From Candidatus Cloacimonadales bacterium (GTDB lineage Bacteria > Cloacimonadota > Cloacimonadia > Cloacimonadales > JAFGVF01): DNA of 64,000 nt. Both the position numbers and the translations under genes were made by a program. The notes below the pieces were generated by a model. That model did not search any database and was not told the DNA's origin. It saw nothing but the letters and a program-made list of their open reading frames with translations. Where the stretch lies: positions 1,152,001 through 1,216,000 of the forward strand of contig CAXXJV010000001.1 of the NCBI GenBank assembly GCA_963663475.2, read 5' to 3'. Shown in pieces: positions 5,164 through 22,615 of this stretch (its first letter is position 1; every line of letters begins with the position of its first letter).

Positions 5164-5170
5164 AATAAGA

Positions 5171-5206: not shown

Positions 5207-5274
5207 ACCCAAATAATGCAGTAGATCTTTAAGAATATACAGTCTTCTCTAAAGGTCAACTACACCATGCGGTT
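5207..5274. mobile_element. MITE-like element copy 1 (short, degenerate right end)
   Basis: acccaaataatgcagtagatcttt ... aaaggtcaactacaccatgcggtt matches the family terminal inverted repeat. Confidence 0.7.
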
Positions 5275-5303
5275 TAACGAATATTTAAGTAAGGAAAATT
5301 AAT

Positions 5304-5504
5304 ATGGATCAACTGAAAGATAAGATTTTAGAAGCAAGAAAAGAAAGAAGAGAAAAGGCATCAAAAGGCTGGTCTCGACTATTCTATATGATTGTACTTC
5401 TTCTCTTAATTATCATTCTTCTCTACAAAACAAACACGAGTAAGTTTGATGTGTTCTGGAATGTTTTTCAAGGTGATCAAACTGAACAAATTCAGGAGAA
5501 ATAG
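5304..5504 (+). CDS. small single-TM hypothetical protein
   Basis: RBS aagga; basic N-terminus then one hydrophobic helix; stop abuts the start of the next gene. Confidence 0.75.
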   Translation: MDQLKDKILEARKERREKASKGWSRLFYMIVLLLLIIILLYKTNTSKFDVFWNVFQGDQTEQIQEK

Positions 5505-6401: not shown

Positions 6402-6425
6402 AATTATTATATAAAAGAGGATACT

Positions 6426-7442
6426 ATGGATTATAAAAGTGCTGGTGTCGATATTAAAGCTGGTGAAGATTCAGTAAACAGAATTAAACCTCTTGTAAAA
6501 GAAACCTTTAATAAGAATGTTCTATCTCAGATTGGTGGCTTTGGGGGTCTTTATCAAGTAGATCTTTCTACCTGGAAAGAACCTGTCTTAGTCTCATCTG
6601 CTGACGGAGTAGGAACTAAACTGGTCATTGCTAATATGGCAGGTGTTTATAATACAGTTGGACAAGATCTTGTTAATCATTGCGTGAATGATATCTTTGT
6701 CCAAGGTGCAATTCCGCAATACTTCTTAGACTACGTAGGAGTTGGTAAACTAAATCCCAAAGTTATGGAAGAAATTATTTGGGGTTTTGCTAAAGCTTGT
6801 AAAGAAAATGAAATGGCTCTTATTGGTGGAGAAATGGCTGAAATGCCAGGAATCTATGCTGAAGATGACTTTGATTTAGCTGGAACTATTGTGGGTATGG
6901 TGGAAAAAAAGAATATTATTACTGGAGATAAGATTCAAAAAGGCGACCTTATCCTAGGTCTACCTTCTACTGGCCTGCATACTAATGGTTACTCTCTAGC
7001 TAGAAAAATTCTCTTTGAAAAGATGAATTTAAAAGTTGATTCCCTCCTTCCACAAGTAAATGAAAGCCTTGCTGATGCTATGTTGAAAATTCATAAATCT
7101 TATCTACCTATCTTAAAAGAATGGGCTAAACCAGATTTGATTCATGGCATGGCTCATATAACAGGCGGGGGAATTCCTGGTAACCTATCAAGAGTTATTC
7201 CTGATAATATGACTGCTGAAATTAATTGCAAAGCTTGGGATATTCCTGCTATCTTCCAGCTCTTAGTTGAAAATGGAAATATTGCCCAAGACGAAAGTTA
7301 TCGTGCTTTCAATATGGGAATTGGAATGATAGTAGTTGTTGCCCCTGACCTTGCCCAGACTATTAAAGAAAAAACTTCTGCTATTGAAATTGGCTATATT
7401 AATGAGAGAGTTGCTGATCTTAAAGTTAGGATGAACTACTAA
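6426..7442 (+). CDS. purM: phosphoribosylformylglycinamidine cyclo-ligase
   Basis: YKSAGVDI, DGVGTK, GGEMAEMP, STGLHTNGYSL, HITGGG, FNMGIG. Confidence 0.97.
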   Translation: MDYKSAGVDIKAGEDSVNRIKPLVKETFNKNVLSQIGGFGGLYQVDLSTWKEPVLVSSADGVGTKLVIANMAGVYNTVGQDLVNHCVNDIFVQGAIPQYFLDYVGVGKLNPKVMEEIIWGFAKACKENEMALIGGEMAEMPGIYAEDDFDLAGTIVGMVEKKNIITGDKIQKGDLILGLPSTGLHTNGYSLARKILFEKMNLKVDSLLPQVNESLADAMLKIHKSYLPILKEWAKPDLIHGMAHITGGGIPGNLSRVIPDNMTAEINCKAWDIPAIFQLLVENGNIAQDESYRAFNMGIGMIVVVAPDLAQTIKEKTSAIEIGYINERVADLKVRMNY

Positions 7443-8263
7443 TGAAATGGAGAATACTTACCCAGGGCAAGCTAAGTCCAGCTGAAAATATGGCTATTGA
7501 TGATGCGATTTTCCAGCTTGTCCAAGAAGGTAAATCTACTCCCTTAATTAGATTCTACGACTGGAATCCACCAACCCTATCTCTAGGTTATCATCAAAAT
7601 GCTGAAAAAGAAGTTGATTTTACGAAACTTAAAGAAATTGCTTATGGCTTTGTTAGAAGACCAACTGGTGGAAGACTAGTTCTCCATAAAAATGAAGTTA
7701 CCTACTCAGTGATTGCTCCTAATGATGAACATCTGGCAGGCAATGTTCTTAAAAGCTATGGAGACATTAGCTTAGCCTTAGCTGAAGGTTTAAAACTTCT
7801 GGGTATTCAGGTTGAATTTGAACAAAAAGAACTATCTTCTTTTTCACAAAGAGAACCAGTAAACCCTTGTTTTAATTCTTCTTCTAAATATGAGCTAGCT
7901 GTCCAAGGTAAAAAGATTGTTGGCTCTGCTCAGGTGAGAAAGAATGGGGTCTTACTCCAACATGGATCTATCATTCTCGATGAAAATCAAAGGGAAATAG
8001 CTTATCTTATGCCTGGACTTTCCGATAAGATGCGGGAAAGACTAGCTAAGCTAATGGATAACAAAACTATCTCCATTAATCAAGTTCTGCAAAAAAAGAT
8101 TCCTTACTCCTTAGCTGTAAAAAAATTTTCTCAAGGATTCCAACAAGCATGGCAAAACGATATTTTTGAAGAAATCCAAGATTTAGAAGACTTTGAAAAA
8201 ATTAGAGTAGAAAAATTAATTAAAAAAAAATACTCGACAGATATGTGGAACTTGAGAAAATAG
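7442..8263 (+). CDS. lipoate--protein ligase A family (LipM-like)
   Basis: NMAIDD, RFYDW..PTLSLG, VRRPTGG..VLH, KKIVGSAQ, LQHGSI. Confidence 0.9.
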   Translation: MKWRILTQGKLSPAENMAIDDAIFQLVQEGKSTPLIRFYDWNPPTLSLGYHQNAEKEVDFTKLKEIAYGFVRRPTGGRLVLHKNEVTYSVIAPNDEHLAGNVLKSYGDISLALAEGLKLLGIQVEFEQKELSSFSQREPVNPCFNSSSKYELAVQGKKIVGSAQVRKNGVLLQHGSIILDENQREIAYLMPGLSDKMRERLAKLMDNKTISINQVLQKKIPYSLAVKKFSQGFQQAWQNDIFEEIQDLEDFEKIRVEKLIKKKYSTDMWNLRK

Positions 8264-8552
8264 TAACATGCTGAAAAATATAGAAATATAAATAATTAAG
8301 AAATAATGATATTTTAGTTAAAAAGGAAAGAAATCTATTGAAAGACAAATATTTATATATGCGAAAAGAAATAAGTGTAAAAAAGTTGCAATTACCTGTT
8401 TTTGATGTCAAAAATAAAAATAAATTGACACCATTCTTATTATATAATCTTTTTGTTAAAATAGTATGATAAACTAAAGTATTATGAAATTAGAGAAATA
8501 TTTGATTTTTTTAAAAATAATTTATTGTGATATTAAAAGGGAGGATAACTAA

Positions 8553-11500
8553 ATGCGAAAGACAGCTATATTGATTACTGTCGTTTTAGTGCTTTTTAGT
8601 GTCCAATTATATGCTCAGACTTCTGGTGTATTAAAGGGACAAGTTAGAGATAATAACGGAGAACCATTACCACAGGCTAACGTTGTATTACAGTTAGATG
8701 GTAATAATACTCAATTCGGTACTAGTACTGATGAATTCGGTGAATATATTATTATTAATATCTCACCAGGTGTCTATGACCTCATGGTCTCTGCTACTGG
8801 TTACAGAAGACAATTAATTCAAGGTGTTGAAATTAATGTTAACCAAACCACTAATAGGGATCCTGTGAGATTAGAACCAGGAGATAATTCATTAGAAGCT
8901 ATTACTTTTACTGAGAAACGTAAGGTAATCGATACCGATAGAGTCGGTACTGAAAGATCCATTGATGTAGGGAATATTAGTGATTTATCTGTTTCCAGTG
9001 TTGATGATATTATGGCCCTCCAACCTGGTGTTACTAATGTAGGTGGAGAAATTCGTGTCCGTGGTTCAAGATCTAATGAAGTTAACTTTACCGTTGACGG
9101 TATGTCAGTTTCTGACCCTGTTGATGGTGGTTCTGCTCTTCAAGTTGATACTGATGCTATCGCTGATATGAAGGTTTATACTGGTGCTTTAACTGCTGAA
9201 TTTGGTAATGCTCAATCCGGTATGGTAAATATCGTTACCCGTTCAGGTTACCCTGAATATAGAGGTAAGGTTGAATGGAATACTGATCATCTAGTTGATG
9301 ATGGTAGAAACCAAGACTTACTTAGATTTAACTTCGGTGGACCAGTTCTTGGCTATTTAGGTGCAGAAAACAATCTAAACTCAAGATTTACCTTCTTTAT
9401 TAATGGTGCTGGAACATGGACTGATGGAAGATATGCAGAATACTATGAATCAGACCCTTATGCAGACTTCACTTTTAATGGACTTCCATTAGTTAATGAA
9501 TACCCTGTTTATGATGTTTATAGTGATAGAGATGAAGTTGCAGGTTTCGATTTATCAAGTAGAAACTACAATGACTATAATATTAACTTCAAATCTAAGT
9601 ATCAAATTAATAACAACTCAAATGTTACCTTCGCTGTACGTGGAGACCGCTCAAGTTACAGACCTTTTGATTGGGGCTGGAAATATGCTCTCCAACATTT
9701 TGCTGAAACAGAAACTGAACAAAAGCAGTATGTTTTTACCTATGACCAAAATCTTAGTCAAACTGCTAACCTAAAATTAAAAGCTTCTTACTTCCAAAAA
9801 GATTCTTATGAAGGACCTAAAGGTATTGATAGAGATAGCTTCTTACATTTAGTTGTTTCCTCTGATGAACTTAATAGCGATGATGAATTAAGAAATGATT
9901 ATGTGCAAAGTGTTCTTAATAATGAAGGTATCTTCTTATATAACCACCCAGCTTATGTTTCTATAGATAGCGATACTGATGGTGTTTATGACTATTATAG
10001 CTCATTTAGACCTGCTTCAGAATGGACTTATGAAACTAATGCCTATAGTGAAAACCCTGGTATTCCTGGTTTTAATGCTCCTGGTTCTATATACACTAAC
10101 TTTGTTGATGATAAAACTGTTTCATACAATCTTAGAGGTGATGTAGAATGGGCGATTGATAGAATCAATACTGCTAAGACTGGTTTTGAATTAACTCGTT
10201 ATAGTATTGAAAAAAATCAGCTCCAAAGCTTTACTACTATTTATAATGATAGAAGAAGTAATTACTTAAGATCTATCTTTGATTCTGCTTCTATTCCAGA
10301 AGGTGCTGATTCACTTGCTATTCAAGATATTGTTAATAATAACAATGATGTTGTTGAAATCTTTGGTGACGGCTCAGCTGAAAACCCTTACTTTGTTGTT
10401 TATTCTCCTGAATCATATTATGAAGCATCTAAAGCTTCTTCTGGTACTAGAGATGGTTATAAAGCTGAACCTATTCAAGGTGCTTTCTATTTACAAGATA
10501 AAATGGAATGGCAAGGTATGATCGTTAATGCTGGTTTAAGATTTGACTTCTGGTACATTGGTGAAGACTATGATGTTCTCAACGATGATGGTACTTACAG
10601 AACTGAAAAGTTTGAAGGCAAAGATAAAACTCAGCTAATGGTTTCACCTCGTGTTGGTGTTTCTCACCCTATCTCTGAAAGAGATGTTCTTAGATTTGCT
10701 TATAACTATCAAAACCAGTTGCCTGCTATGAGATATATATTCACTTCTAAAACACCTCAAGATGCTTACACTTCAGATAATGCAATTACTGTTGGTAATG
10801 CTGAACTTGAACCTCAAATTACTATCACTTATGAAGTTGGTCTTCAACACTTAATCAATGAAGATTGGGCTATTGACCTTTCATTATACTATAAAAACTA
10901 CTATAACTATGTATCAACAAGAAAAGTTGTAGACCCTGATGAACCTCAAGTTTTCTGGTATGAATTTATCTCTGAAGACTATGCGTCAGGTAGAGGTATT
11001 GATATTGCTTTAGATAAAGCTTTAACAAACTTCTGGTCTGCAAATATTTCTTATTCATTTGCTTGGGCTGAAGGTAATAACTCTTCAACTGTTATCCAAG
11101 ATGAAAATACAAATCTTCGTGAATTCCCTCTTGATTGGGATATCAGAAACAATCTAAGCTTGAATTTAATGTTTAGAATTGAAAGAGGTGAAGAATTCTT
11201 CATTCCTTTCACAAACTATATTTTACCATTGGATGATTTCTCTACTAGTTTCACTTACACTTACTCTTCTGGAGAACCTTATACTCCTCAAGATCCTGAA
11301 ACTGATAATTTCTTAGATCCTAATAGTGAAAGAAAAGATGCTAGACAAAATACTAGTTTGAAGATTTCTAAAAAAATTAATATTAGTAGAAATTCATTTA
11401 TTAATGTTTTCTTTGATATTGATAACTTATTCAAGTATAGAAATATCAATAATGTATATGCAAAAACTGGTGACCCATTTGACTCAGGTGAAGATTTCTC

Positions 11501-11615
11501 AGTTAATGGCGTAAATATACCAGAAGTTGATTTCATGAATCAACATAGATTTAGTGATCCAGGAAGAGTTTCTCAAGATAGATCATACTCTTTTGGTATC
11601 TCTTATAATTTCTAA
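8553..11615 (+). CDS. TonB-dependent receptor with N-terminal carboxypeptidase-regulatory-like domain
   Basis: Signal peptide; G.LKGQVRD..GEPLP.ANV; plug RGSRSNE...VDG, AEFGNAQSG.VNIVT; barrel NAGLRFD, SPRVG, GNAELEP; C-terminal GISYNF. Confidence 0.92.
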   Translation: MRKTAILITVVLVLFSVQLYAQTSGVLKGQVRDNNGEPLPQANVVLQLDGNNTQFGTSTDEFGEYIIINISPGVYDLMVSATGYRRQLIQGVEINVNQTTNRDPVRLEPGDNSLEAITFTEKRKVIDTDRVGTERSIDVGNISDLSVSSVDDIMALQPGVTNVGGEIRVRGSRSNEVNFTVDGMSVSDPVDGGSALQVDTDAIADMKVYTGALTAEFGNAQSGMVNIVTRSGYPEYRGKVEWNTDHLVDDGRNQDLLRFNFGGPVLGYLGAENNLNSRFTFFINGAGTWTDGRYAEYYESDPYADFTFNGLPLVNEYPVYDVYSDRDEVAGFDLSSRNYNDYNINFKSKYQINNNSNVTFAVRGDRSSYRPFDWGWKYALQHFAETETEQKQYVFTYDQNLSQTANLKLKASYFQKDSYEGPKGIDRDSFLHLVVSSDELNSDDELRNDYVQSVLNNEGIFLYNHPAYVSIDSDTDGVYDYYSSFRPASEWTYETNAYSENPGIPGFNAPGSIYTNFVDDKTVSYNLRGDVEWAIDRINTAKTGFELTRYSIEKNQLQSFTTIYNDRRSNYLRSIFDSASIPEGADSLAIQDIVNNNNDVVEIFGDGSAENPYFVVYSPESYYEASKASSGTRDGYKAEPIQGAFYLQDKMEWQGMIVNAGLRFDFWYIGEDYDVLNDDGTYRTEKFEGKDKTQLMVSPRVGVSHPISERDVLRFAYNYQNQLPAMRYIFTSKTPQDAYTSDNAITVGNAELEPQITITYEVGLQHLINEDWAIDLSLYYKNYYNYVSTRKVVDPDEPQVFWYEFISEDYASGRGIDIALDKALTNFWSANISYSFAWAEGNNSSTVIQDENTNLREFPLDWDIRNNLSLNLMFRIERGEEFFIPFTNYILPLDDFSTSFTYTYSSGEPYTPQDPETDNFLDPNSERKDARQNTSLKISKKINISRNSFINVFFDIDNLFKYRNINNVYAKTGDPFDSGEDFSVNGVNIPEVDFMNQHRFSDPGRVSQDRSYSFGISYNF

Positions 11616-11655
11616 AATAAATAAAATATAATATAATAATTGGAGGAAATGAAGG

Positions 11656-12399
11656 ATGAATAAGAAAATTTCAGTACTCTTACTAATAATTTTGTTAGGA
11701 AGTTTTGTATTTACTACTGCTCTTTTTGCACAAGAGGCTGCACAAGATGGTGGTAGTGCTATTGAAACTATTGCAAGTACTCTTTTTGGAAAAAGCTTAG
11801 TTAAACAGTTTAAAGATGGTGGATGGGCAATGTGGCCTCTCTTAGCTTTATTTATCTGGGGACTTGGTATCGGTATTTGGAAACTCTTAGTTTTAGTAAG
11901 AGGAAGAATAAATGTTGAAAAATTCTTAGATGAAATTGTTCCTAAAATAAAAGATGGTAACTTCAAAGCTGCTATTGATTATGTTAATGATCAAAAAGGT
12001 TCAGTTGCAAATATAGTTAGAGCTGGTTTATTAAAAAATGATTCTGGTATCGAAGCTATGGAAAAAGCTATGGAAAACGCAGCTGTTGTTGAAATGTCTT
12101 TCTTAGATAGAGGTTTTAACGAATTATCAACTACAATTACCTTGGCTCCTATGATGGGTTTCTTAGGAACTCTTCTTGGTATGATTACAGCTTTTGATGA
12201 TATTCAAAACACTGAAGTTGTTGATGCTGGTGTTGTTGCTGGAGGTATCAAGATAGCTCTTATTACTTCTGCTGCAGGTTTAATCATTGCGATCCCTATT
12301 CAATTTGCTAACAATATTTTCATGACTATGGTTGATAGCATTGTTGTTGATATGCAGAAAGCAACTGAAAAGGTAATTGATACTTTGACTGAAAAGTAG
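11656..12399 (+). CDS. exbB: MotA/TolQ/ExbB proton channel
   Basis: GGWAMWPL, APMMGFLGTLLGMI.AF, GGIKIALITSAAGL. Confidence 0.92.
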   Translation: MNKKISVLLLIILLGSFVFTTALFAQEAAQDGGSAIETIASTLFGKSLVKQFKDGGWAMWPLLALFIWGLGIGIWKLLVLVRGRINVEKFLDEIVPKIKDGNFKAAIDYVNDQKGSVANIVRAGLLKNDSGIEAMEKAMENAAVVEMSFLDRGFNELSTTITLAPMMGFLGTLLGMITAFDDIQNTEVVDAGVVAGGIKIALITSAAGLIIAIPIQFANNIFMTMVDSIVVDMQKATEKVIDTLTEK

Positions 12400-12410
12400 G
12401 GTGGGGAATC

Positions 12411-12890
12411 ATGAAATTTCCTGCTAAAAAGAAAAAAAGTGCTGAAATACCAACAGCTTCAATGTCTGACATTGCATTCTTATTGATAGTTTTCTTTATG
12501 GCAGTTGGAAAATTTGATAATAAACAGGGTATTCCTTATCAAATTGCTGCTCCTGCTGCTGAAGAACAAACTCAAGAGCAAGATGTAATTTTAGACAGAC
12601 AGAATCTTATTGAAATTGAGATTTGGAATGAGGCTGGTACTAGCAATGTCTTATGTGAATATTTTGTTTACGATGAGAATGATGTTAAACAAGATGGTGT
12701 AAGATTTAGAGTAGCAGAACTTGGAAAGCAGATGATCAAAGATAAAGTTGAGAAGAATCCTGATAGTGTTATTAAACTCAAGATTGATAGAAATGTTGAG
12801 TACCGTGGATTTATTTCTGTATTCGATGAATTAAGAGCTAATAATATGGCGAAAAAAGTTAAATTTGAACGCCACTATTTAAACAAATAG
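12411..12890 (+). CDS. exbD: ExbD/TolR family protein
   Basis: IPTASMSDIAFLLIVFFM TM with conserved Asp; IKLKIDRNVEY. Confidence 0.9.
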   Translation: MKFPAKKKKSAEIPTASMSDIAFLLIVFFMAVGKFDNKQGIPYQIAAPAAEEQTQEQDVILDRQNLIEIEIWNEAGTSNVLCEYFVYDENDVKQDGVRFRVAELGKQMIKDKVEKNPDSVIKLKIDRNVEYRGFISVFDELRANNMAKKVKFERHYLNK

Positions 12891-12899
12891 GAGAGTAAT

Positions 12900-13352
12900 A
12901 TGAATATGATTAGAAAAAAGGTCAAGGCAGAAGCTAACACTTCTTCTTCATCTGATATTGCTTTCTTACTCCTGCTCTTCTTTGTTGTAACAACTCAGAT
13001 TATCTATATTCCTGTTCAAACTAAATATCCAAATGCTCGAGAAATAGAAAGACAGATGCAAAGTAATATTCTTACTGTTTATGTTGCTAATGATGGCACA
13101 TCTCCAAATTTTGATTATTATTTAGATGACGTCTATGTTAATGAGCTAGTTGATAATAAGAGTAACGAAGAAATTAGTCGTAGCTTAGGCAAGCAAATCA
13201 GATCAAGAATCGATCAAGATCCTGATCGTAACTGGATTGTTAGTCTTAGAATAGATGCTGATGTAGATTTTGATACTATTAATACCTTAATAACAGATCT
13301 TCAAAACAATAAAGTAGAATCTATTGTTTTTGAAGCAAGAAAGAGGGGCTAA
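12900..13352 (+). CDS. exbD: second ExbD/TolR family protein
   Basis: SSSDIAFLLLLFFVVTT; VSLRIDADVDF. Confidence 0.88.
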   Translation: MNMIRKKVKAEANTSSSSDIAFLLLLFFVVTTQIIYIPVQTKYPNAREIERQMQSNILTVYVANDGTSPNFDYYLDDVYVNELVDNKSNEEISRSLGKQIRSRIDQDPDRNWIVSLRIDADVDFDTINTLITDLQNNKVESIVFEARKRG

Positions 13353-13355
13353 TAT

Positions 13356-14042
13356 ATGGCGGGTAAATATACTGATTGGAAAACTGAGGCAAATGGCTAC
13401 CTGGTTAAAGGTATGGCAATGTCTGTTGTTTTAGTTATGTTTCTTTTACTAGTTATGCCTCGTTTCGAATCTTCTGCTAAAGAGGAAGAGGTTAGTGATG
13501 AATCACAAGTATCAGAACATTTTGAATTTGAAGAAGTTGTTGAAGAGGAAGAAATTATAGAGGAAGAAGCTCCTGAAGAAGAAGAGGAGATTATTAATCC
13601 TGAAGAAAATATTCAGATGAACTTTGATGAATTAGGTCTTGAGGATATTGAAAGTGCTGTTGAGCGTAAAACAATCTCTACTACAGATGATTTAGAAAAA
13701 CTTAACATCTCATTCTCTTCTGTTGATGAAGCTAGTATTAATCAACCTTATGTTGTTCACCAAGAAATGCCTACTGTTATCAGAAGCGTTAAACCTATTT
13801 ATCCAGATATTGCTATTCAAAACAATGTTGAGGGTACTCTTATTGTGGAAGCTTGGGTAAAAGTAGATGGTACTGTTGGTAATGTAAGAGTTATTAAATC
13901 TCTTCAAAGCATTCCTGGTGGATTAGATGAAGCAGCAGTAAATGCTGTTTGGCAATGGACATTTGAACCTGCAAAATCTGGTGGTAGACCTGTAGCTTGT
14001 TGGGTGAAAATTCCTCTTAACTTAAAATTTGAAGATAATTAA
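13356..14042 (+). CDS. tonB: energy transducer TonB with acidic linker
   Basis: N-terminal TM; TonB_C motifs PIYPDIA...VEG..V.VDG.V, LDEAAV.AV.QW.FEPA. Confidence 0.92.
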   Translation: MAGKYTDWKTEANGYLVKGMAMSVVLVMFLLLVMPRFESSAKEEEVSDESQVSEHFEFEEVVEEEEIIEEEAPEEEEEIINPEENIQMNFDELGLEDIESAVERKTISTTDDLEKLNISFSSVDEASINQPYVVHQEMPTVIRSVKPIYPDIAIQNNVEGTLIVEAWVKVDGTVGNVRVIKSLQSIPGGLDEAAVNAVWQWTFEPAKSGGRPVACWVKIPLNLKFEDN

Positions 14043-14057
14043 ACTGGAGGATTATAA

Positions 14058-17000
14058 ATGAAATTGATTTTCCGTAAGCTGATTCCAGTATTAGCTATAA
14101 TGATTTGTAGCATTTCTTTGCTAAATGCTGCTGCGGTCGACCCGACTCCGACCAAACAATTTGACTTAACTAAATATCATGATGTTGGAAACATTTGGCT
14201 CCGTGTAAGTAATTACGGTTTCTTTGGTTCTGGTAGTGATATTACTCCTCAATACCCGTCTCTTGAGTATCCTGGTGGTAGTGGAATTGACTATCTCTAT
14301 CAAGGTGCTTTATGGTTCGGTGCGAAAAAAATTAGAAGAAACGCAACTGGTGAAAAACTTTATTGGACATCAAGTGATCCTTATGGTGAAGAAGATATGA
14401 GTGTTATTGCTGAATCTGACTTACCTGATGATTATAATGGATTAGGTGTTGTGCTTGATACATTAGTATCTGTGGGTTTCGACGGTGACTTAGGTTTAAA
14501 TGAGTTTTTGCCTGCCTATAATCCTACAGAAAATGCAAACCCATCAGTATCAGACTTTTTTGGTACTTTCAATTCATCTGATAAAATCATGACTGCTTCT
14601 ACTAGAAGCCAAAGACGTGGAGACGATGATGATGGTGATGGAAAAATCGACGAAGATGGACCTGGTTTTACCTTCCCGATGAGAGATATGCATGAGTTAC
14701 CTGAAGCTTTCCAAGATTTAGGTTCTATTTATCTTCATGAGCAAGATTTTGATCAAACAAGAGCTATTGAAGAGAGACAAGACATCTGGTTCCCTCTTGG
14801 TTTTATGGATCTTTCTGCTAGTGATGAGAGTGAATATTTTAACTTTGCTACTCCTTATGATGATGATGGTGATGGTAGAGTTGATGAAGATTCTGCACCT
14901 GTATCTGAACAAGATTTTATTTCATATTATTATGATTATTCTCCATTTGGATATGAAGGCCAAAGAGACTGGGGAAGAGATAAATCAAGATCTGATCATT
15001 ACCCATTGAACATTCGTGTTAGACAAATGAGTTATCAATGGTCTTATGAATATATTAAAAATCTTGTTTATATTGAATTTAATATTACAAATATGAATGA
15101 CCAAGACACTCTTTATGATTGTGCTATGGGTGTCTATATGGACTCTGACGTTGGACCTCAAAGTTGGGATTCTGATAAAGCTTCTGATGACCTTTCTGGT
15201 TATCAAAAAGGTGATGATTATGAATTTGCATACACTCGTGATAATGACGGTGATGGTGGTTTAACTACTGGACTTGTTGGTTCACGTGTTTGTTCTCCAA
15301 TTCCTAACCCAGACTCATTAAACTATTCTTGTTGGTTCTGGGAAGTTGGTGATGGTCCTGATGATTCCAATATCAGATCTTCAACCCTTACAGGAAAAAC
15401 TAATAATGAAAAATATTGGTTATTGATTGGTGGAAAAGCTAGAACACTTGAGTCTGGTGAAGTTATCCATATCAATCCTGATGATCAAAAATTTGAATCT
15501 TTGAGAAAAGAAGATAGTGAAGGTTTTGGTGACCATTTTATCCAACCTATTGCTGCTGATACTAGATATCTCTTTGCTTTTAGTGGTGCCCAACCAGGTA
15601 CTCCTGATTATAATGAAGTAGATGCTGAAGGTAACTATTTCAAAAGATGGAACCTTGCTCCACGTAAAACTATGAAAATTGTTATTGCTGTTTTCCCAGG
15701 AGATAACTTGGAAGATCTTAAAGCTACTTCAATTTGGGCTAAGACAATCTATGGTGATGCTCAATCATTAACTAATGTTGTTCTTCCTGATACCGCTTTA
15801 CACTATACTCCACCTGAACCTCCTGAAATTCCTAACTTATTTGCTGAAATTTCTGAAGATGGTAACTATATAGATTACTATTGGGATAATAGATCTATTT
15901 TCTCATATGATAGAGATAATGTTAGTGGAACTGTTGTTGGTTGGCAAGATGGTAATGCTAATTTTGATTCATATTATCAAAATTGGGACCAATGGAGTGA
16001 CATTTACGCTGGTAATACTGAAGTACCTGCACCAGCTGATACACTATCAAGTGAAGAAACAAGAACTATTGCTCCTCCAACTGCATTTAGATTAAGACAT
16101 GACTTCCAAGGATACCGTACCTGGATTAGATCAGGTTCTGGATCACAAGAAGATTGGTCATTAGTTCAAATGTGGGGTAAATATGAAAGTCAACAAGACT
16201 TAGAAGACTATAATGTAAATCTTGGTGTTGTTAATAGTGCTGGCGATGCGATTTTTGAAGATTTTGGTGGTTATACTGATATCGATACAGGCTTACCAAA
16301 TGAAAGAATTGCTGGTTCTGAAAATAATAGATACGAAGATGACCAATATTATAAATATAATGAATACTATGTGATGCGTCCTATTGAGCTTGGTGAAACC
16401 ATTAATGGTTGGCCTCTCTATAGATATGATGTTGATTATAGTCAAGAACTTCAAGATCAAGCAGATCAGATTGCTAATGATATGTTCGGTATAGTAGTTA
16501 ACCAAGCTGCTGGTACAATTCTCTCAGATGAAGTTAAAGCTGAAATTGCTGTACAACTTTTCAAAAGAGATGATGTTAGAGAAGATATTTTCAGAGAATT
16601 ATACGATGAAAAATTAATTCCTCTCTATAGTTTCGGTGGTCAATCATCAATCGGTGATACTGAAAAACTTGAAGAACTTAGAAAAGAACGTTTATCTAGA
16701 AGATATTTCAGAGCATCTGCTAGTGTGCCTCGTAAAGGTGTAGAAACCTATGTTGCTGTCACTGCTTTTGATAGAGGTATGCCAGCTAAGTCTCTAGATT
16801 TCTTAGAAACTGGTAGAGATGCTGATGCTAATATGAAAGTATTCTTCCCTGCTCCAAGTAGTAGAGATAATGACGGTTCTAACGTATATGTAGTTCCTAA
16901 TCCATATATTGGTGGATCTTCATTTGACGGTAGAAGAGAAAATGATGATAAGGGTGATAAATCTAAGAGAATTTGGTTCGTTAATTTACCTGCCAGATCT

Positions 17001-17243
17001 CATGTTAAAATCTTCACTCTTGCTGGTGACTTAGTCGATGAATTTAGACATGAAGGTGCCTATGAAGAAGATATCATTACTGTAAGTAAAGCTGCTAGTC
17101 TTGGTATTACTTCTGAAAGCATCCACTCTTGGGACCTTCTTTCAAAAAATAACCAAATTATTGCTCCTGGTGTTTATTTATTCTCAGTTAAGAATCTAAG
17201 AAATGGTGACATCAATGTTGGCAAATTTGTCTTAATTAAATAA
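14058..17243 (+). CDS. large secreted acidic protein with DxDGDG repeats and T9SS-like C-terminal domain
   Basis: Signal peptide; DDDGDGKIDED and DDDGDGRVDED; CTD VYVVPNPY...IFTLAGDLV...WDL...APGVYL...GKFVLIK. Confidence 0.85.
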   Translation: MKLIFRKLIPVLAIMICSISLLNAAAVDPTPTKQFDLTKYHDVGNIWLRVSNYGFFGSGSDITPQYPSLEYPGGSGIDYLYQGALWFGAKKIRRNATGEKLYWTSSDPYGEEDMSVIAESDLPDDYNGLGVVLDTLVSVGFDGDLGLNEFLPAYNPTENANPSVSDFFGTFNSSDKIMTASTRSQRRGDDDDGDGKIDEDGPGFTFPMRDMHELPEAFQDLGSIYLHEQDFDQTRAIEERQDIWFPLGFMDLSASDESEYFNFATPYDDDGDGRVDEDSAPVSEQDFISYYYDYSPFGYEGQRDWGRDKSRSDHYPLNIRVRQMSYQWSYEYIKNLVYIEFNITNMNDQDTLYDCAMGVYMDSDVGPQSWDSDKASDDLSGYQKGDDYEFAYTRDNDGDGGLTTGLVGSRVCSPIPNPDSLNYSCWFWEVGDGPDDSNIRSSTLTGKTNNEKYWLLIGGKARTLESGEVIHINPDDQKFESLRKEDSEGFGDHFIQPIAADTRYLFAFSGAQPGTPDYNEVDAEGNYFKRWNLAPRKTMKIVIAVFPGDNLEDLKATSIWAKTIYGDAQSLTNVVLPDTALHYTPPEPPEIPNLFAEISEDGNYIDYYWDNRSIFSYDRDNVSGTVVGWQDGNANFDSYYQNWDQWSDIYAGNTEVPAPADTLSSEETRTIAPPTAFRLRHDFQGYRTWIRSGSGSQEDWSLVQMWGKYESQQDLEDYNVNLGVVNSAGDAIFEDFGGYTDIDTGLPNERIAGSENNRYEDDQYYKYNEYYVMRPIELGETINGWPLYRYDVDYSQELQDQADQIANDMFGIVVNQAAGTILSDEVKAEIAVQLFKRDDVREDIFRELYDEKLIPLYSFGGQSSIGDTEKLEELRKERLSRRYFRASASVPRKGVETYVAVTAFDRGMPAKSLDFLETGRDADANMKVFFPAPSSRDNDGSNVYVVPNPYIGGSSFDGRRENDDKGDKSKRIWFVNLPARSHVKIFTLAGDLVDEFRHEGAYEEDIITVSKAASLGITSESIHSWDLLSKNNQIIAPGVYLFSVKNLRNGDINVGKFVLIK

Positions 17244-17257
17244 GGGAGATTGAACTA

Positions 17258-18280
17258 ATGAAAAAGATAATTATAATAAGCCTAATTGTTCTCCTTCCTA
17301 TACTTATGTTTGCTGAAATCTTCGGTAAAACTGCTACTTCTGCTTTGCAATTTCTTAAATTTGGTGTTGATGCCAGAGCTGTAGGAATGGGTGAAGCTTA
17401 TGTGGCAGTTTCAGATGATATATCTTCAGTTTACTGGAATCCAGCTGGTTTAGCGACAAAACTAAACCATCAAGCTTTCTTCTCTCATACAAAATGGGTA
17501 GCTGACGTAGATCATGAATTTGCTGCTGTTTCTTATACAGACGGTATTCAAGCTCTTGGTTTAAGTGCTTCAGTTCTTCATATGGATGATATGGACGAAG
17601 TTACTGAAGAAGCTTTTGGACCTACTGGAAGAACTTTTACTGCTAGTGATATTGCTATTGGCTTAACATATTCCAATGCTTTCACTGATAAATTTTCTTT
17701 TGGTATTACTGGTAAGTATCTTAGAGAAAATCTCTATGAATTCAGTATCGATAGCTATGCTTTTGATATAGGTTCATTATATAATACTCAATGGCAAAAT
17801 TTAACTATTGGTATGGCCTTAAGAAATTTTGGTCCTGATGTGATTTATGAAATTGATAATGATGGTGATGATTTAACAGACGAAGATCCATTCGATTTGT
17901 TAGACAACGATGGTGATGGTCTAATCGACGAAGATGGGGAAGAGTTAGGTTTTAAAATACCAATGTCTTTCTCTCTCGGTTTAGCTTTAGACCTTATGAG
18001 ACAAGAGGAACAATCTTGGATATTCTCAGCTCAGTTGGATAATGTCGTAGATAGAGAAGAAACTTGGAATTTAGGTTCTGAATACACTTATAGAAACTTT
18101 GCTCTTAGAGCTGGACATCAAATAGGTTATGATGCTGCTGCATTCTCCTTTGGTGCTGGCTTTAAAATCCCAACCAGATTAGCTGTTTTCTCTCTTGATT
18201 ACGCTTATACTGAGATGGGAGATTTGAAAGAAGATTTTATGAATAGTGTTCACCGTTTCTCAGTTAAAATGGATTTTTAA
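17258..18280 (+). CDS. PorV/PorQ (UPF0164)-like outer-membrane barrel
   Basis: Signal peptide; FLKFGVDARAVGMGEAYVAVSDD..SVYWNPAGL; FDIG, RNFG, DYAY; terminal Phe. Confidence 0.9.
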   Translation: MKKIIIISLIVLLPILMFAEIFGKTATSALQFLKFGVDARAVGMGEAYVAVSDDISSVYWNPAGLATKLNHQAFFSHTKWVADVDHEFAAVSYTDGIQALGLSASVLHMDDMDEVTEEAFGPTGRTFTASDIAIGLTYSNAFTDKFSFGITGKYLRENLYEFSIDSYAFDIGSLYNTQWQNLTIGMALRNFGPDVIYEIDNDGDDLTDEDPFDLLDNDGDGLIDEDGEELGFKIPMSFSLGLALDLMRQEEQSWIFSAQLDNVVDREETWNLGSEYTYRNFALRAGHQIGYDAAAFSFGAGFKIPTRLAVFSLDYAYTEMGDLKEDFMNSVHRFSVKMDF

Positions 18281-18295
18281 TCTAAATTTTATAAG

Positions 18296-18319
18296 GTCCG
18301 AGTGGCTTGCCACTCGGAC
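18296..18319. other. intercistronic perfect stem-loop
   Basis: gtccgagtgg-cttg-ccactcggac, followed by an A-run rather than a U-run on the + strand. Confidence 0.7.
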
Positions 18320-18396
18320 AAAAAATTTGTAATTTGATGAAAAGTGACTATTTTATCATCAAGAATTTAAACCAAAAAAAAATGGGAGGAATGTAC

Positions 18397-20688
18397 ATGA
18401 AACGATTGTTTCTTGTTGTGGCTGTATTAGCCATTCTTATTACTGGCGTTTTTGCTAGTCAAAACGACCCTAGAAAAGCGATGACGATTGATCCTATGGG
18501 TAATCAATCTTACAGACCGGACAGTAGGTTTATGCCTACCTACAATTTTGCTATCGAACCTGTAACTATAGTTGATAACTTCTATGACTATTTCCCAGGT
18601 TCATACACTGGAAAACCAATGCAAAGAGTTCAAACTCCTACTTTAGATGGACATTGGTTAATTTTCCATACTAAAACTACTGCAAGTTCTAACCGTAGAG
18701 TCTACAAAACCTTTATCGACAATACTGGTAGTATTCAATCAAACACATCATTTGGTTCAGCAGATATCTGGGAAGGATATCCTGGTTTAGCAGTTACTGA
18801 AGGTGGAAGACCTTTATTCGCTTACCATGTTGACCTTGATGACGAAGCTACTGCTCTTGAAGTTGGATTTGGTTATGATGCTGTAATCGGTGGTGTTGCC
18901 CTTGGTATGCACTCATCTCTTTACCAAATCATCGATAATCCATTAGAAATTGAAGTTAATGGAGTTACTGTTTCCACTAACGAATTTATCTGGCCTTCAG
19001 TACAAGTTGGTCCTTCACCTGTTGCAGGTTCACAACGTGTATATATCATGGCTAAAAATGCTACTGACAATGGTACTGCTATTTCAGAAAACGTTGTTAT
19101 GTATTACAAAGATTTCACAGAAACTGAAATCGAACTTCAATCATTTGATGGTTCAGGTTGGTCATATACTACCATCCCTGAAATGGATGAATGGAACAAT
19201 TCTCAAGGTGAATGGAGAAGACCTTACATGTCATTCATCGTTCATGAAGACAAAGCCTATTACATTGGTTACCACATTGCTTACACTGAATCTGGTGAAG
19301 CTGGAGAACCAATTGATGAAGGTACTTTAACTGTATTCGCATGTGATAACTATGGTGAAGGTGAATGGACAAGACATTCAACTTATGCTAAAATCGATTG
19401 TGAAAATCCAAAACAAATTAATCCTGAAACTGGTGAAATTGTTGCTGGAACTGGTATCTTTGTTGATGATTCAAACGAACCATACGCAGACGAATTCATC
19501 GAAATGGGTATTGGCCAATCAGGTCACTTCAGTTCAAGTGTTGACCATGCAGGTAGAATTCATATTCCTGCTTTCTTCACAGTTCAAAGTACTGAAGGTG
19601 GCTACTGGCCAGATTTCCATACTGTGAAAAACCTTGCTTTTGATACAGCTACTTTAGAATGGACTTTCTCTGAAGTTTATCCACAAGTAGATAATGGTAC
19701 AAATATTCCTAACCCTGCTGCAGACTTCACTAACTATGATGGTGCAAATGGTGGATATAATGACGTAACAGTTTGGAAAAGCTGGGACAAAAACGCTGAT
19801 GGTCTTCATGATCAAGTTCTTGATGATGGTACTTGGGATGGTGAAGATGATGGTGTAACTGCTGCTGATGCTGAATATTGGGGAATCCCTATCAGAGATA
19901 ACATATGGCCTTACATGTATTGGGATTCAGCTGCTGCTGATAATGCTATGATGTTCCATCTTCATACTGCTCACGTTACTAATGCTAACGAACATGGTAT
20001 GATGGCTATGGTTTGGCAATCTGCTCAAAGATCTAAAGATTACAACGAATATCCTGATTCATATCCTGAATTAGCTGACTACCAAAATATGCCTGAATTA
20101 GTTATTTCTGTTTCAGCTGATAATGGTAATCACTGGTCAGAACCTATCTTCTTAAACGGTGTTGATACACCTGAAATGGCTGACGAAATTCCTGAATTCC
20201 CTTACTTAGGTTCAGAAGTTGATTTCATCGGTCTTGATGAAAATGATAATCCTATCGGTCGTGTTCATGTTATGTACTTAGATGATGATACTTATGGTTC
20301 ATCTGTACAAGCAATCGGACAAGCTACTGGTGGAACAATGAAATATATGGCTCTTGACATAGTATTTGTTGATGCTCCTGTTGATAATGAACAAAATGAT
20401 GTTGTTCCTAACATCGCTATGTTAAACCAAAACTACCCTAATCCTTTCAATCCTACTACTACAATTAATTATAATGTAGTAAAATCTGGTGATGTTAAAC
20501 TTAATGTTTATAACGTGAAAGGTCAATTAGTTAAAACTCTTGTTAACTCACCTCAAACTGTTGGTTTAAATTCAGTTGTTTGGAACGGTGATGATAATGC
20601 TGGAAATAAAGTTTCTTCAGGTGTTTACTTCTACAAAGTAGAAAATGCTGGAAGAACTGAAATGAAGAAAATGGTATTAATGAAATAG
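18397..20688 (+). CDS. secreted FlgD-Ig/T9SS-CTD protein of unknown function, paralog A
   Basis: Start moved from 18307 to ATG 18397 (RBS ggagga, signal peptide MKRLFLVV); [14 protein letters not shown]...SSGVYFY...KKMVLMK. Confidence 0.88.
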   Translation: MKRLFLVVAVLAILITGVFASQNDPRKAMTIDPMGNQSYRPDSRFMPTYNFAIEPVTIVDNFYDYFPGSYTGKPMQRVQTPTLDGHWLIFHTKTTASSNRRVYKTFIDNTGSIQSNTSFGSADIWEGYPGLAVTEGGRPLFAYHVDLDDEATALEVGFGYDAVIGGVALGMHSSLYQIIDNPLEIEVNGVTVSTNEFIWPSVQVGPSPVAGSQRVYIMAKNATDNGTAISENVVMYYKDFTETEIELQSFDGSGWSYTTIPEMDEWNNSQGEWRRPYMSFIVHEDKAYYIGYHIAYTESGEAGEPIDEGTLTVFACDNYGEGEWTRHSTYAKIDCENPKQINPETGEIVAGTGIFVDDSNEPYADEFIEMGIGQSGHFSSSVDHAGRIHIPAFFTVQSTEGGYWPDFHTVKNLAFDTATLEWTFSEVYPQVDNGTNIPNPAADFTNYDGANGGYNDVTVWKSWDKNADGLHDQVLDDGTWDGEDDGVTAADAEYWGIPIRDNIWPYMYWDSAAADNAMMFHLHTAHVTNANEHGMMAMVWQSAQRSKDYNEYPDSYPELADYQNMPELVISVSADNGNHWSEPIFLNGVDTPEMADEIPEFPYLGSEVDFIGLDENDNPIGRVHVMYLDDDTYGSSVQAIGQATGGTMKYMALDIVFVDAPVDNEQNDVVPNIAMLNQNYPNPFNPTTTINYNVVKSGDVKLNVYNVKGQLVKTLVNSPQTVGLNSVVWNGDDNAGNKVSSGVYFYKVENAGRTEMKKMVLMK

Positions 20689-20725
20689 TATCATCCGAAA
20701 CTATAGCCTTTTATGGCTTAAATAC

Positions 20726-20753
20726 AAAACCTCGCTTCGGCGAGGTTTTTTTT
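20726..20753 (+). terminator. intrinsic terminator of the TonB/PorV locus
   Basis: cctcgc-ttcg-gcgagg plus T8. Confidence 0.92.
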
Positions 20754-20763
20754 GAACCTCTAA

Positions 20764-20831
20764 ACCCTAAGAATGCAGTAAATCTTTGAGAATATAGTTC
20801 TATTCTCAAAGATCTATTGCATTATTTGGGA
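20764..20831. mobile_element. MITE-like element copy 2 (short palindromic form), TAA on both flanks
   Basis: taa|accctaagaatgcagtaaatctttgagaata...tattctcaaagatctattgcattatttggga|taa. Confidence 0.8.
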
Positions 20832-20874
20832 TAATACATTATTTATCCTTTTATTAAAACCCTTACAGGGTAAT

Positions 20875-21032
20875 ATCTTTGAGCTAGCCATCATTACCCA
20901 GAGTTGCGATACTTTCAGCATCTTACTCTGGGCTAAATTATTTTATCCCTTTCAGGGATATTTGCTGAATCAATATAGTAATGAAATATTCTCATTTTCC
21001 TATATTGATCCCACCAGACTTGAACTTGAGCC
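20875..21032. repeat. ~160-bp repeat, inverted copy of 46320..46476, containing REP-like palindromes
   Basis: Reverse complement aligns by eye with few mismatches to 46320-46476; includes atccctttcagggat and cccagag...ctctggg. Confidence 0.85.
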
Positions 21033-21193
21033 TTAGATATTGACTCATTAGATACTTATTAGTTAAGATATTAAGGCTACATCGAAATTACTTAATCTTT
21101 TAGCTTATTCTAAGAAATAAGGACTTAGAATTTTACTGTTGACTTATATTCAGTTAAAAAATTTAGTGAAAAAAAAGTAGAAAAGTAGGAAAA

Positions 21194-22615
21194 ATGAAAG
21201 ATAAACAAGATCTCACTCAAGGAAATATATTCAGAACAATCACAATGTTATCTTTACCTATAATGGCTCAATCATTCATACAAATGGCTTATAATATGAC
21301 TGATATGCTGTGGATAGGAAGGGTAGGTTCCGGAGCTGTAGCTGCAGTAGGAACTGCTGGCTTTCTTATCTGGTTCTCATTTGCTTTTATTATTATCGCC
21401 AAAATCGGAGCTGAAGTTGGTGTAGCTCAATCTATAGGTAAAAAGGATAGGCTTAAAGCTAGAGATTTTGCTAGGAATGCTTTGCAACTTACTATAATTT
21501 TTGCCTTTATTTATACTCTTGCTCTTGTTACTTTATCAAGAAGTTTAATTGGATTTTTTGATCTAGGTGATCCTCAGGTTGTAGCTGACTCGATTTCTTA
21601 TCTGAAGATTGTGGCATGGGGTATTGTTTTCACATTCATTAATCCAGTACTTTCTGGTATCTACAATGGTATGGGAAATAGTAAAACTCCTTTTTACATC
21701 AATGCTGTTGGGCTAGTTATTAATATAATATTAGATCCAATTTTAATTTTCGTATTTGATTTAGGTGTTGCTGGTGCTGCCTATGCAACAGTTTTTTCTC
21801 AAGCTATCGTAACCTTAATATTTATTCTACTCTTTAGAAGCTCATTAGCTCCTTTTGAAGAATTTCATTTCTTTAAAAAACCAATTCCTAGTGTTATGAG
21901 AGAAATCTTTAAGTTTGGTACTCCTATAGGACTACAATCAGGCTTATTTACTATTTTTGCAACCCTAATAGCTAAAATCATTGCTCAGTGGGGGCCAGTA
22001 CCCATTGCAGTACAAAAAGTAGGCTCACAAATAGAAGCTATATCCTGGATGACTGCTAGTGGATTTTCAACTGCTCTATCTTCATTTGTTGGACAAAACT
22101 ATGGAGCAGATAAATGGGATAGGATTTCCAAAGGTTATTATACTACTATTGCCCTTTCAGGTACTATAGGTATTATGGCCTCTCTCTTACTAATTTTCTT
22201 TGCTGAACCTATCTTCGTGGTCTTCATACCTAATGATCCTGAAGCACTTAGGATTGGAACCGATTACCTTCGCATTCTGGGTTTCTCTCAACTTTTCATG
22301 ACTTTGGAAATTACTTCTCAGGGTGCTTTTAATGGACTAGGAAAAACACTGCCTCCATCTTTAATCAGTATTATTTTTACTGGGGCAAGATTACCCCTAG
22401 CTTTAATCTTATCTGCATCAACCTTACTGGGTCTAAATGGTGTCTGGTGGTCAATTTCTATTAGTAGCATTTTTAAAGGAACTATCTTAGCTGGACTCTT
22501 TATCCTTTTGCTTAAGAGACATCCAGACCCTTGTAAACCAAATCTAATAAATCAAATTATCTTTAAATTTGATAGAAGGGCTTGGCAGGATAAACGGGGC
22601 TTATCTGGTAAATAA
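21194..22615 (+). CDS. MATE family efflux transporter
   Basis: DLTQG, YNMTDMLWIGRVG, G.GNSKTP, LDPILIF, GVAGAAYAT, GQNYGA; multi-TM. Confidence 0.95.
   Translation: MKDKQDLTQGNIFRTITMLSLPIMAQSFIQMAYNMTDMLWIGRVGSGAVAAVGTAGFLIWFSFAFIIIAKIGAEVGVAQSIGKKDRLKARDFARNALQLTIIFAFIYTLALVTLSRSLIGFFDLGDPQVVADSISYLKIVAWGIVFTFINPVLSGIYNGMGNSKTPFYINAVGLVINIILDPILIFVFDLGVAGAAYATVFSQAIVTLIFILLFRSSLAPFEEFHFFKKPIPSVMREIFKFGTPIGLQSGLFTIFATLIAKIIAQWGPVPIAVQKVGSQIEAISWMTASGFSTALSSFVGQNYGADKWDRISKGYYTTIALSGTIGIMASLLLIFFAEPIFVVFIPNDPEALRIGTDYLRILGFSQLFMTLEITSQGAFNGLGKTLPPSLISIIFTGARLPLALILSASTLLGLNGVWWSISISSIFKGTILAGLFILLLKRHPDPCKPNLINQIIFKFDRRAWQDKRGLSGK

Follow-up and report, generated by a model that had tools for sequence, protein, structure and literature searches.

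The eight genes between positions 8553 and 20753 of a 64,000-nucleotide window from a Candidatus Cloacimonadales bacterium (GenBank assembly GCA_963663475.2, contig CAXXJV010000001.1, positions 1,152,001 to 1,216,000 of the forward strand) encode a TonB-dependent receptor (TBDR), an ExbB, two ExbD proteins, a TonB, a 1061-residue exported protein of an unnamed family (P1061), an outer-membrane barrel of the PorV/PorQ family, and a 763-residue protein with a type IX secretion system (T9SS) C-terminal domain (CTD). The locus is best explained, with a probability of roughly 0.55, as a TonB-dependent uptake module that lacks SusD and whose surface partner is exported by the T9SS and held by its own barrel. 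The conserved core of this module is a trio of the TBDR, the P1061-family protein, and a dedicated barrel subfamily. Specifically, the barrels and receptors found beside distant P1061 relatives on metagenome contigs belong to the same subfamilies as those of the window and mostly occur without Ton genes, which identifies the trio rather than the whole cluster as the core.

The source genome belongs to the Cloacimonadota, comprises 3.3 Mb on two contigs (C1 and C2), and is 99.2% complete. Close relatives of the proteins are found in records labeled Cloacimonadota. Genome-wide counts refer to a set of 2837 stop-to-stop open reading frames (ORFs) of at least 100 residues, and positions given without a contig name refer to the window.

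Recurrence of the trio

The trio was traced beyond the phylum on metagenome contigs, which were scanned with an alignment of 26 distant P1061 relatives. The relatives on these contigs are 25–47% identical to the lead sequence of the scan. Eighty loci were kept, and their ORFs were labeled with hidden Markov models (HMMs) built from Cloacimonadota orthologues. A P1061-like ORF is present in 75 of the 80 loci, accompanied by a member of the barrel subfamily in 24 of the 75, by one of the receptor subfamily in 21, and by both in 13. When only the 14 loci flanked by 5 kb or more on each side are counted, nine carry both partners, one carries the receptor only, and four carry neither. A reading made earlier from the sequence alone had singled out the triad of receptor, CTD protein, and PorV-like barrel, and this triad does recur with distant P1061 relatives, in two gene orders. 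The first order is TBDR-P1061-barrel (for example L057, L064, L069, L118, and L128), and the second is P1061, a second CTD protein, a protein of about 490 residues, TBDR, and barrel (for example L078, L085, L086, L098, L105, and L113).

Both partners are distinguished from their paralogues by score. Barrels of the metagenome loci reach 99.8–236 bits on the barrel subfamily HMM, versus at most 96.8 bits for the paralogues within the window's own genome. Receptors of the metagenome trios have a median of 312 bits on the receptor subfamily HMM, and the second receptor of the genome does not match it. Each of the two subfamilies has a single member among the 2837 ORFs.

The Ton genes do not share this distribution. 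ExbD-ExbD-TonB was labeled in one of the 80 metagenome loci (L118), and in none of the 80 do Ton genes lie between the receptor and P1061. Their placement at that position looks like a Cloacimonadota arrangement.

Within the Cloacimonadota, 54 loci with a P1061 relative at 49–96% identity emerged from a scan in which each species was represented by one genome. The barrel is the next ORF after P1061 in 53 of the 54, and among the 50 loci whose upstream DNA is long enough, TonB is the ORF directly before P1061 in 48. By strict ORF labels, 36 of 42 loci show the full order TBDR-ExbB-ExbD-TonB-P1061-barrel. In five of the six misses, tblastn finds the missing gene in place, an overlapping frame on the opposite strand having been picked instead. 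The sole real exception (L026) is an additional copy, its genome carrying the full locus as well.

The flanks of the metagenome trios hold further genes. In loci of the second order, a CTD protein of about 660–780 residues (with DUF5689 in L078 and a sub-threshold OB-fold match in L098) and a protein of about 460–510 residues of no Pfam family lie between P1061 and the receptor, and an NHL-repeat protein, and in L105 an S1/P1 nuclease, stand behind the barrel. These neighbors may hint that nucleic acid or another polymer is the substrate in those lineages. In two loci of the first order (L056, 2880–5516; L057, 13141–14256), EB_dh-domain proteins and a GWxTD-domain protein come after the barrel.

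P1061

P1061 is a single-copy protein in the genome and matches no Pfam or NCBIfam family at E ≤ 0.01. It consists of an N-terminal signal peptide, read from the translation, a supersandwich at residues ~33–585, middle domains, and a divergent, type-A-like T9SS CTD at residues ~925–1061. Its AlphaFold2 model, built from a 91-sequence alignment, has a mean predicted local distance difference test (pLDDT) of 79 and a predicted template-modeling score (pTM) of 0.81. A first model from 34 in-phylum sequences was discarded (pLDDT 56, pTM 0.43); its Foldseek matches, at template-modeling (TM) scores of 0.14 or less, were meaningless.

In the retained model, residues ~33–585 are predicted to adopt a galactose-mutarotase-like β-supersandwich. 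VIA-align matches this region to the non-catalytic N-terminal domains of glycoside hydrolases and phosphorylases of families GH15, GH65, GH94, and GH116 at Z scores of 19.0–15.4, the top matches being 9ju0 (Z 19.0 over 260 residues, root-mean-square deviation 3.3), 1lf6 (Z 18.5), and 6ggy (Z 18.3). None of the listed alignments reaches the catalytic (α/α)6 domain of those enzymes. A sequence search of solved structures with the P1061-family profile found nothing.

The tail of P1061 had been called a T9SS CTD by the sequence-only reading. It matches neither PF18962 nor TIGR04183, which qualifies that call; its likeness to the CTD stands by profile-profile comparison. When the P1061-family C-terminus is compared by hhalign with a profile of 80 of the 111 canonical CTDs in the genome, the probability is 95.8% (E 6.6e-9) and the alignment has a 17-residue insertion. 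Foldseek aligns 162 columns of the P1061 model to PorZ (5m11) with a probability of 1.00, and the tail is predicted to dock on the neighboring barrel, as described below.

The P1061 family is large. An exhaustive profile-free search returned 1439 representatives at E ≤ 1e-3 and 483 at E ≤ 1e-10. Many relatives are 620–980 residues long and share N-terminal, middle, and C-terminal blocks, and in 8 of the 19 relatives scanned with Pfam a canonical Por_Secre_tail stands behind the shared N-terminal part. By Atlas labels, which define the taxa of the distant relatives and were obtained with the homologue P0095 as the query, the family extends to Eiseniibacteriota, Krumholzibacteriota, WOR-3, and Fidelibacterota.

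The PorV/PorQ-type barrel

The 340-residue barrel belongs to the PorV/PorQ family, as its match to NF033709, at 223.1 bits (cut-off 90 bits), spans positions 1–326 of the 326-position model; Pfam also assigns it to PorV. It is neither PorV proper (NF033710, 93.6 bits versus a cut-off of 250) nor PorQ proper (NF033711, 95.6 bits versus a cut-off of 220).

Complex prediction of the barrel with P1061 residues 880–1061 gives a score of 0.88, versus 0.01 for the best of three controls, which agrees with the suspected pairing of the PorV-like barrel with this CTD. The inputs were a 44-row alignment for the barrel and 90 rows for the P1061 segment, in three runs; in a benchmark, 116 of 157 solved complexes reach the mark set for the score, as do 2 of 215 mismatched pairs. 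The runs share at least 90% of contacts, and the pLDDT of the partner is at least 73. The predicted interface on P1061 includes the conserved tail blocks 944–949, 984–993, 1033–1045, and 1052–1061. On the barrel, the confident contacts flank its acidic insertion and do not fall inside it.

Pairing of a barrel with a large neighbor is common in this genome. There are 11 places with PorV/PorQ-family genes, and in 7 of the 11 the gene lies directly beside one for a large protein with a divergent CTD. These CTDs score 7.8–36 bits on the genome CTD HMM, versus 55–129 bits for ordinary cargo of the same neighborhoods. The partners include a 1653-residue PorU-like protein and a giant of about 2900 residues or more. 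This pairing rule agrees with what is described for Porphyromonas in an excerpt of PMC5562754, where PorU and PorZ retain their tails and PorV and PorQ hold them.

Example pairs elsewhere in the genome are C1:1305927–1310888 with 1304911–1305918, C1:98667–107366 with 97664–98620, and C2:166017–170723 with 170732–172210. Another PorV/PorQ-family gene (326 residues, NF033709 136 bits) straddles the start of the window (1–675, plus strand). Upstream of it are a 155-residue gene and three tandem CTD proteins of 1007, 804, and 802 residues (C1:1142936–1150859), and the tails of the 804- and 802-residue proteins are near-identical. Aspartate-rich, calcium-loop-like insertions of the same pattern occur in both P1061 (residues ~186–200 and ~266–279) and the barrel encoded beside it (residues ~199–228).

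The receptor and the Ton motor

The receptor is a single-copy TBDR with the plug and TonB_dep_Rec barrel in the expected succession. Its Pfam matches are PF13620 (64 bits, residues 27–103), PF07715 (33.4 bits, cut-off 23.9), and PF00593 (65 bits, cut-off 27), which together form the Oar/SusC-type architecture of CarboxypepD_reg, plug, and barrel, and genes for ExbB, ExbD, ExbD, and TonB follow directly downstream. No SusC/RagA model of NCBIfam matches the receptor at E ≤ 0.01, where just two weak, unrelated families appear. The receptor is not a member of the SusC/RagA-with-SusD group, given that no SusC/RagA model matches and PF07980 does not occur in the genome. A sequence search of solved structures with the receptor found nothing.

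ExbB, both ExbD proteins, and TonB all score above their Pfam cut-offs (Table 1), and the second ExbD is 29% identical to the first. The TonB_C domain of this TonB is the only match in the whole genome, and the plug domain has two matches, namely the operon receptor and a 727-residue frame at C1:487495. With one TonB_C and two plug domains genome-wide, the motor is the cell's only TonB system and is not reserved for the locus. The earlier description of a private energizing complex does not hold.

Further ExbB/ExbD-like stators in the genome are a TolQR-like pair, an ExbB-ExbD-ExbD cluster, and a weak MotA-like match on contig 2. The ExbB-ExbD-ExbD cluster, at C1:414483–421983 (positions 10484–17984 of locus L137, minus strand, with PorU at 4427–8350 of the same locus), is some 5 kb away from the true PorU. 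It includes proteins of 489 and 782 residues of no Pfam family and no TonB_C, and is a candidate for a further envelope motor.

Type IX secretion and SusD in the genome

The T9SS is represented in the genome by both its SprA translocon and its PorU sortase. SprA matches sum to 487 bits in one 2133-residue frame (cut-off 200), and PorU scores 571.6 bits (cut-off 420). An HMM built from the genome's own tails finds 162 CTD-bearing ORFs, 150 of them at 25 bits or more. The models for GldL (TIGR03513) and GldM (TIGR03517) find no match in the genome and are silent in every control genome too, so their silence does not establish absence. GldK has partial matches only, which fall under the cut-off and on the FGE-sulfatase domain, and no recognizable gldKLMN cluster lies beside the two GldK-like genes. 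One of these has ParA, ParB, and two proteins of no Pfam family as neighbors, and the other is flanked by pantothenate kinase and SprA. A GldK-like gene of 960 residues with eight CHB_HEX_C_1 repeats lies just upstream of SprA. Of the T9SS genes, whose inventory the earlier reading had proposed as a check, SprA and PorU are thus present, together with about 160 CTD proteins; for GldL and GldM the models matched neither this genome nor the controls.

No match to SusD (PF07980) is found anywhere in the genome, and the control, Bacteroides thetaiotaomicron, does match. The lack of a SusD-like lipoprotein noted at the locus therefore extends to the entire genome.

Proposed mechanism and alternative explanations

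In the favored explanation, P1061 would pass the inner membrane by means of its signal peptide and the outer membrane through the T9SS, of which SprA and PorU are present. Its divergent CTD would stay uncleaved and bound to the extracellular face of the barrel encoded 14 nucleotides downstream, in the way that PorU is retained on PorV and PorZ on PorQ in Porphyromonas. P1061 would thereby be displayed on the surface and kept next to the receptor, whose gene opens the operon. In that position the P1061 supersandwich would bind substrate, possibly a glycan or another polymer, and hand it to the receptor for import, with TonB-ExbB-ExbD2, the cell's sole such motor, opening the receptor. P1061 would in this role replace SusD as the capture partner, and the 763-residue CTD protein would be an accessory surface protein of the same locus. 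That P1061 serves the receptor, and the direction in which the receptor transports, are read from the recurrence of three subfamilies together in two gene orders.

Several observations weigh against this explanation. Within the phylum, the unrelated upstream gene purM is likewise found in most Cloacimonadota loci by tblastn, so in-phylum synteny alone is no proof of a functional link. Among the metagenome loci, the four of 14 well-flanked cases in which a P1061 relative stands without barrel or receptor, together with tandem arrays of P1061 relatives (L084 and L123), mean that the family is not always tied to the trio. Of the 50 loci that extend 1.1 kb or more downstream, just 12 have the barrel as the very next ORF. 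The metagenome neighbors, which comprise EB_dh-domain, GWxTD, NHL, S1/P1 nuclease, DUF5689, and β-helix proteins, point to no consistent substrate. PorV-CTD complexes have already been solved, and the docking score may mirror likeness to those known complexes rather than binding by this pair. The local HMM of the genome's own CTDs scores P1061 at just 7.8 bits (E 0.028). The predicted supersandwich fold reveals no function and no binding site was identified on P1061, and contact between the receptor and the barrel-P1061 pair is presumed.

The Ton/receptor cluster and the P1061-barrel pair could be independent outer-membrane units that are kept side by side, which is rather unlikely. Retention of purM upstream in most Cloacimonadota loci fits such a neighborhood, as do the four of 14 well-flanked metagenome loci without either partner and the generality of protein-barrel pairing in this genome (7 of 11 places), where the other pairs have no adjacent receptor. 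The recurrence of the receptor and barrel subfamilies beside P1061 relatives in two gene orders nevertheless speaks against one arrangement having simply been inherited. Among the 2837 ORFs there is a single member of each subfamily, and the P1061 gene is separated from its neighbors by gaps of 15 nucleotides upstream and 14 nucleotides downstream.

Export in the manner of Oar is improbable. In Myxococcus xanthus, Oar and its own Ton system are needed for secretion of the protease PopC, according to an excerpt of PMC6434023. By analogy, the receptor would work outwards here, and the neighboring exported proteins would be its cargo or a handling station. The receptor does have the Oar architecture, and a full Ton system is encoded with it, just as with oar (same excerpt), but this architecture is also that of SusC-type importers (28% of all TonB-dependent transporters; same excerpt). 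The P1061 tail has diverged too far for the CTD models of Pfam and NCBIfam, yet it can be aligned to the CTD profile and its docking on a PorV-type barrel is predicted; a T9SS route exists in the form of SprA, PorU, and 162 CTD proteins. Ton genes were labeled in one of the 80 metagenome loci, and most trios have none nearby.

A role in the T9SS machinery itself is comparably improbable. P1061 and the barrel would form an accessory attachment sub-complex, and the Ton motor would power type IX handling without GldLM. The P1061-barrel pair follows the gene-order logic of PorU-PorV, the 162-column Foldseek alignment is to PorZ, and the GldL and GldM models are matchless in a 99.2% complete genome with SprA, PorU, and 162 CTD proteins; those models are also silent in the control genomes, however, and hence prove no absence. 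As a motor, the ExbB-ExbD-ExbD cluster near the true PorU (about 5 kb away) is no worse a candidate. P1061 relatives are found in multiple copies and in tandem arrays, as cargo does and a machine part does not, and the receptor belongs to the metagenome trios whereas the Ton genes mostly do not. The sequence-only reading had likewise treated TonB-energized handling of CTD cargo as the more speculative of its options.

It is very improbable that the sole Ton motor doubles, opening the receptor and also powering the transfer or turnover of CTD proteins on PorV-type barrels; receptor and barrel would then form a TonB-gated site at which type IX export meets TonB import, in a phylum with about 160 CTD proteins and no recognizable GldL/GldM motor.

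The 763-residue CTD protein

The 763-residue protein encoded after the barrel carries a canonical type-A CTD, with TIGR04183 at 39.5 bits (cut-off 23), PF18962 at 27.8 bits (cut-off 27), and Pfam Por_Secre_tail/FlgD_ig at its C-terminus. Full-length relatives were found only in records labeled Cloacimonadota, and no Pfam family matches the N-terminal part. The N-terminal part is probably a β-propeller, as suggested by the Atlas model of the homologue P0346, which resembles BNR/FG-GAP/Ycf48-type propellers at TM scores of 0.40–0.62 and serves as a lead only. A sequence search of solved structures found nothing for the N-terminal part and matched the FlgD-like tail (E 6e-4).

A member of this family follows the barrel in 39 of 46 Cloacimonadota loci. 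The genome also holds three full-length paralogues at 49%, 35%, and 53% identity, which lie in the window at 43729–46002 and 52623–54899 (both minus strand), away from any receptor, and at C1:580903–583185. As a conserved fourth member of the module, the protein was rejected: HMM matches in the metagenome loci fall mostly on the CTD (positions ~600–720 of 720), and its N-terminal 640 residues have no match at E ≤ 1e-3 among the second genes of the second-order metagenome loci. The 763-residue protein is a looser accessory of the locus. Its earlier inclusion in the system is weakened by the three paralogues and by an N-terminal domain that the second CTD proteins of the metagenome loci do not share.

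Layout and signals of the locus

The eight genes are co-oriented on the plus strand from 8553 to 20688, as first described (Table 1). The intergenic gaps from the TBDR to the barrel gene are 40, 11, 9, 3, 15, and 14 nucleotides in the ORF list, in agreement with the 3–40 nucleotides given before. The barrel gene and the last gene are separated by a spacer of 116 nucleotides if the ATG at 18397 is taken as the start; this start sits behind GGGAGG and yields 763 residues. With genes packed like one operon and an order that is kept across the phylum, the single-operon proposal is supported.

Table 1. Genes and signals of the locus, in window positions
Feature	Position	Strand	Basis
TBDR, 1020 residues, CarboxypepD_reg + plug + barrel	8553..11615	+	Pfam
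ExbB (MotA/TolQ/ExbB proton channel), 247 residues	11656..12399	+	PF01618, 91.8 bits
ExbD copy 1, 159 residues	12411..12890	+	PF02472, 61.6 bits
ExbD copy 2, 150 residues	12900..13352	+	PF02472, 57.3 bits
TonB, 228 residues	13356..14042	+	PF03544 (TonB_C), 63.5 bits
P1061 (1061-residue exported protein, unnamed family)	14058..17243	+	signal peptide, predicted supersandwich, divergent T9SS CTD
PorV/PorQ-family outer-membrane barrel, dedicated subfamily, 340 residues	17258..18280	+	NF033709, 223.1 bits
Stem-loop in the spacer between barrel gene and last gene, 10-bp stem, no T-run	18297..18320	+	folding versus shuffles
CTD cargo protein, 763 residues (ORF 18307/18397-20688)	18397..20688	+	TIGR04183, PF18962
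Intrinsic terminator closing the cluster	20731..20753	+	GC stem, T-run, folding versus shuffles

The cluster ends in a single clear terminator, which the earlier reading had placed at 20726 and which consists of a 6-bp GC stem, a 4-nucleotide loop, and eight T. Its folding energy is -18.5 kcal/mol (z -6.3), and none of 200 shuffles equals it; the terminator is absent from the output of a consensus scan. The stem-loop in the spacer folds at -19.4 kcal/mol (z -5.6), again unequaled in 200 shuffles. An Rfam scan of 7800–21400 gave two matches (E 0.08–0.1), both far under the gathering score, and within that range no riboswitch upstream of the receptor gene hints at a substrate. A promoter scan was uninformative, with 45 sites versus 56.5 ± 8.1 expected.

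Four metatranscriptome runs from one study contain contigs that match parts of the cluster with a likeness of at least 95%. One contig corresponds to 16706–17336 and bridges the junction of the P1061 and barrel genes, and three more extend from the barrel gene into the spacer; contigs from an RNA library prove neither transcription nor a single transcript and serve here as a weak hint only. In the same four runs, summed contig word depth over 18281–20962 is tens to hundreds across the 763-residue gene, versus 0–12 upstream, a value that is no measure of expression and to which paralogues or relatives may contribute.

Comparison with known systems

The SusC/SusD (RagA/RagB) pairs and "utilisomes" of Bacteroidota combine a receptor with an adjacent surface partner that is thought to capture substrate. 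The present module shares with them a CarboxypepD_reg-type receptor encoded beside a large surface-exposed partner, although this exposure is predicted here. It differs in that there is no SusD in the genome and no SusC/RagA NCBIfam model for the receptor. SusD is a lipoprotein with a TPR (tetratricopeptide repeat) fold, whereas P1061 is a predicted β-supersandwich with a T9SS tail, which a third component, the PorV/PorQ-type barrel, would hold.

The PorU:PorV sub-complex and the PorZ:PorQ sub-complex of Porphyromonas gingivalis anchor proteins that retain their CTD, as stated in an excerpt of PMC5562754. P1061 resembles these proteins in its predicted retention of a CTD on a PorV/PorQ-family barrel and in the adjacency of the two genes (same excerpt). 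Unlike PorV and PorQ, the barrel falls under the cut-offs of both equivalog models, and a separate true PorU exists in the genome. Unlike PorU, P1061 has no peptidase domain or other Pfam family, and unlike the T9SS attachment complex, the P1061-barrel pair is tied to a TonB-dependent receptor.

Oar has the same receptor architecture, and its gene is clustered with those for ExbB, ExbD, and TonB (excerpt of PMC6434023). M. xanthus differs in having no T9SS, and the Oar system has no PorV-like barrel or CTD protein.

The BAM complex of Bacteroides contains a FadL-like barrel that packs against another barrel and whose loops hold a surface protein, as outlined in an excerpt of PMC12578637. The module resembles its BamG-BamH arrangement, in that a 14-stranded FadL/PorV-like barrel would sit against another barrel with its loops holding an extracellular protein (PMC12578637, same excerpt). 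The partner barrel is BamA there and a TBDR here, and BamH is not a CTD protein.

No published description of a module of receptor, CTD protein, and PorV-like barrel was found in the full-text literature searched, outside of which most subscription journals lie. The module is apparently an undescribed counterpart of the SusC/SusD nutrient-capture pair.

Significance

The module is probably a main nutrient gate of Cloacimonadota, because it holds the only TonB and one of the two receptors. Literature searches return the Cloacimonadota in work on biogas plants, on anaerobic digesters, and on an anoxic Antarctic lake. The P1061 family has over a thousand relatives and at this time carries no name or domain model.

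To our knowledge, how large substrates are captured at the surface of Bacteroidota relatives that lack SusD is an open question. If the favored explanation is true, the module would provide a new answer, namely a TonB importer with a type IX-exported partner that is held non-covalently by its own barrel. PorV/PorQ-type barrels would likewise widen from secretion shuttles to permanent anchors of working surface proteins, with seven such barrel-anchor pairs in this genome alone.

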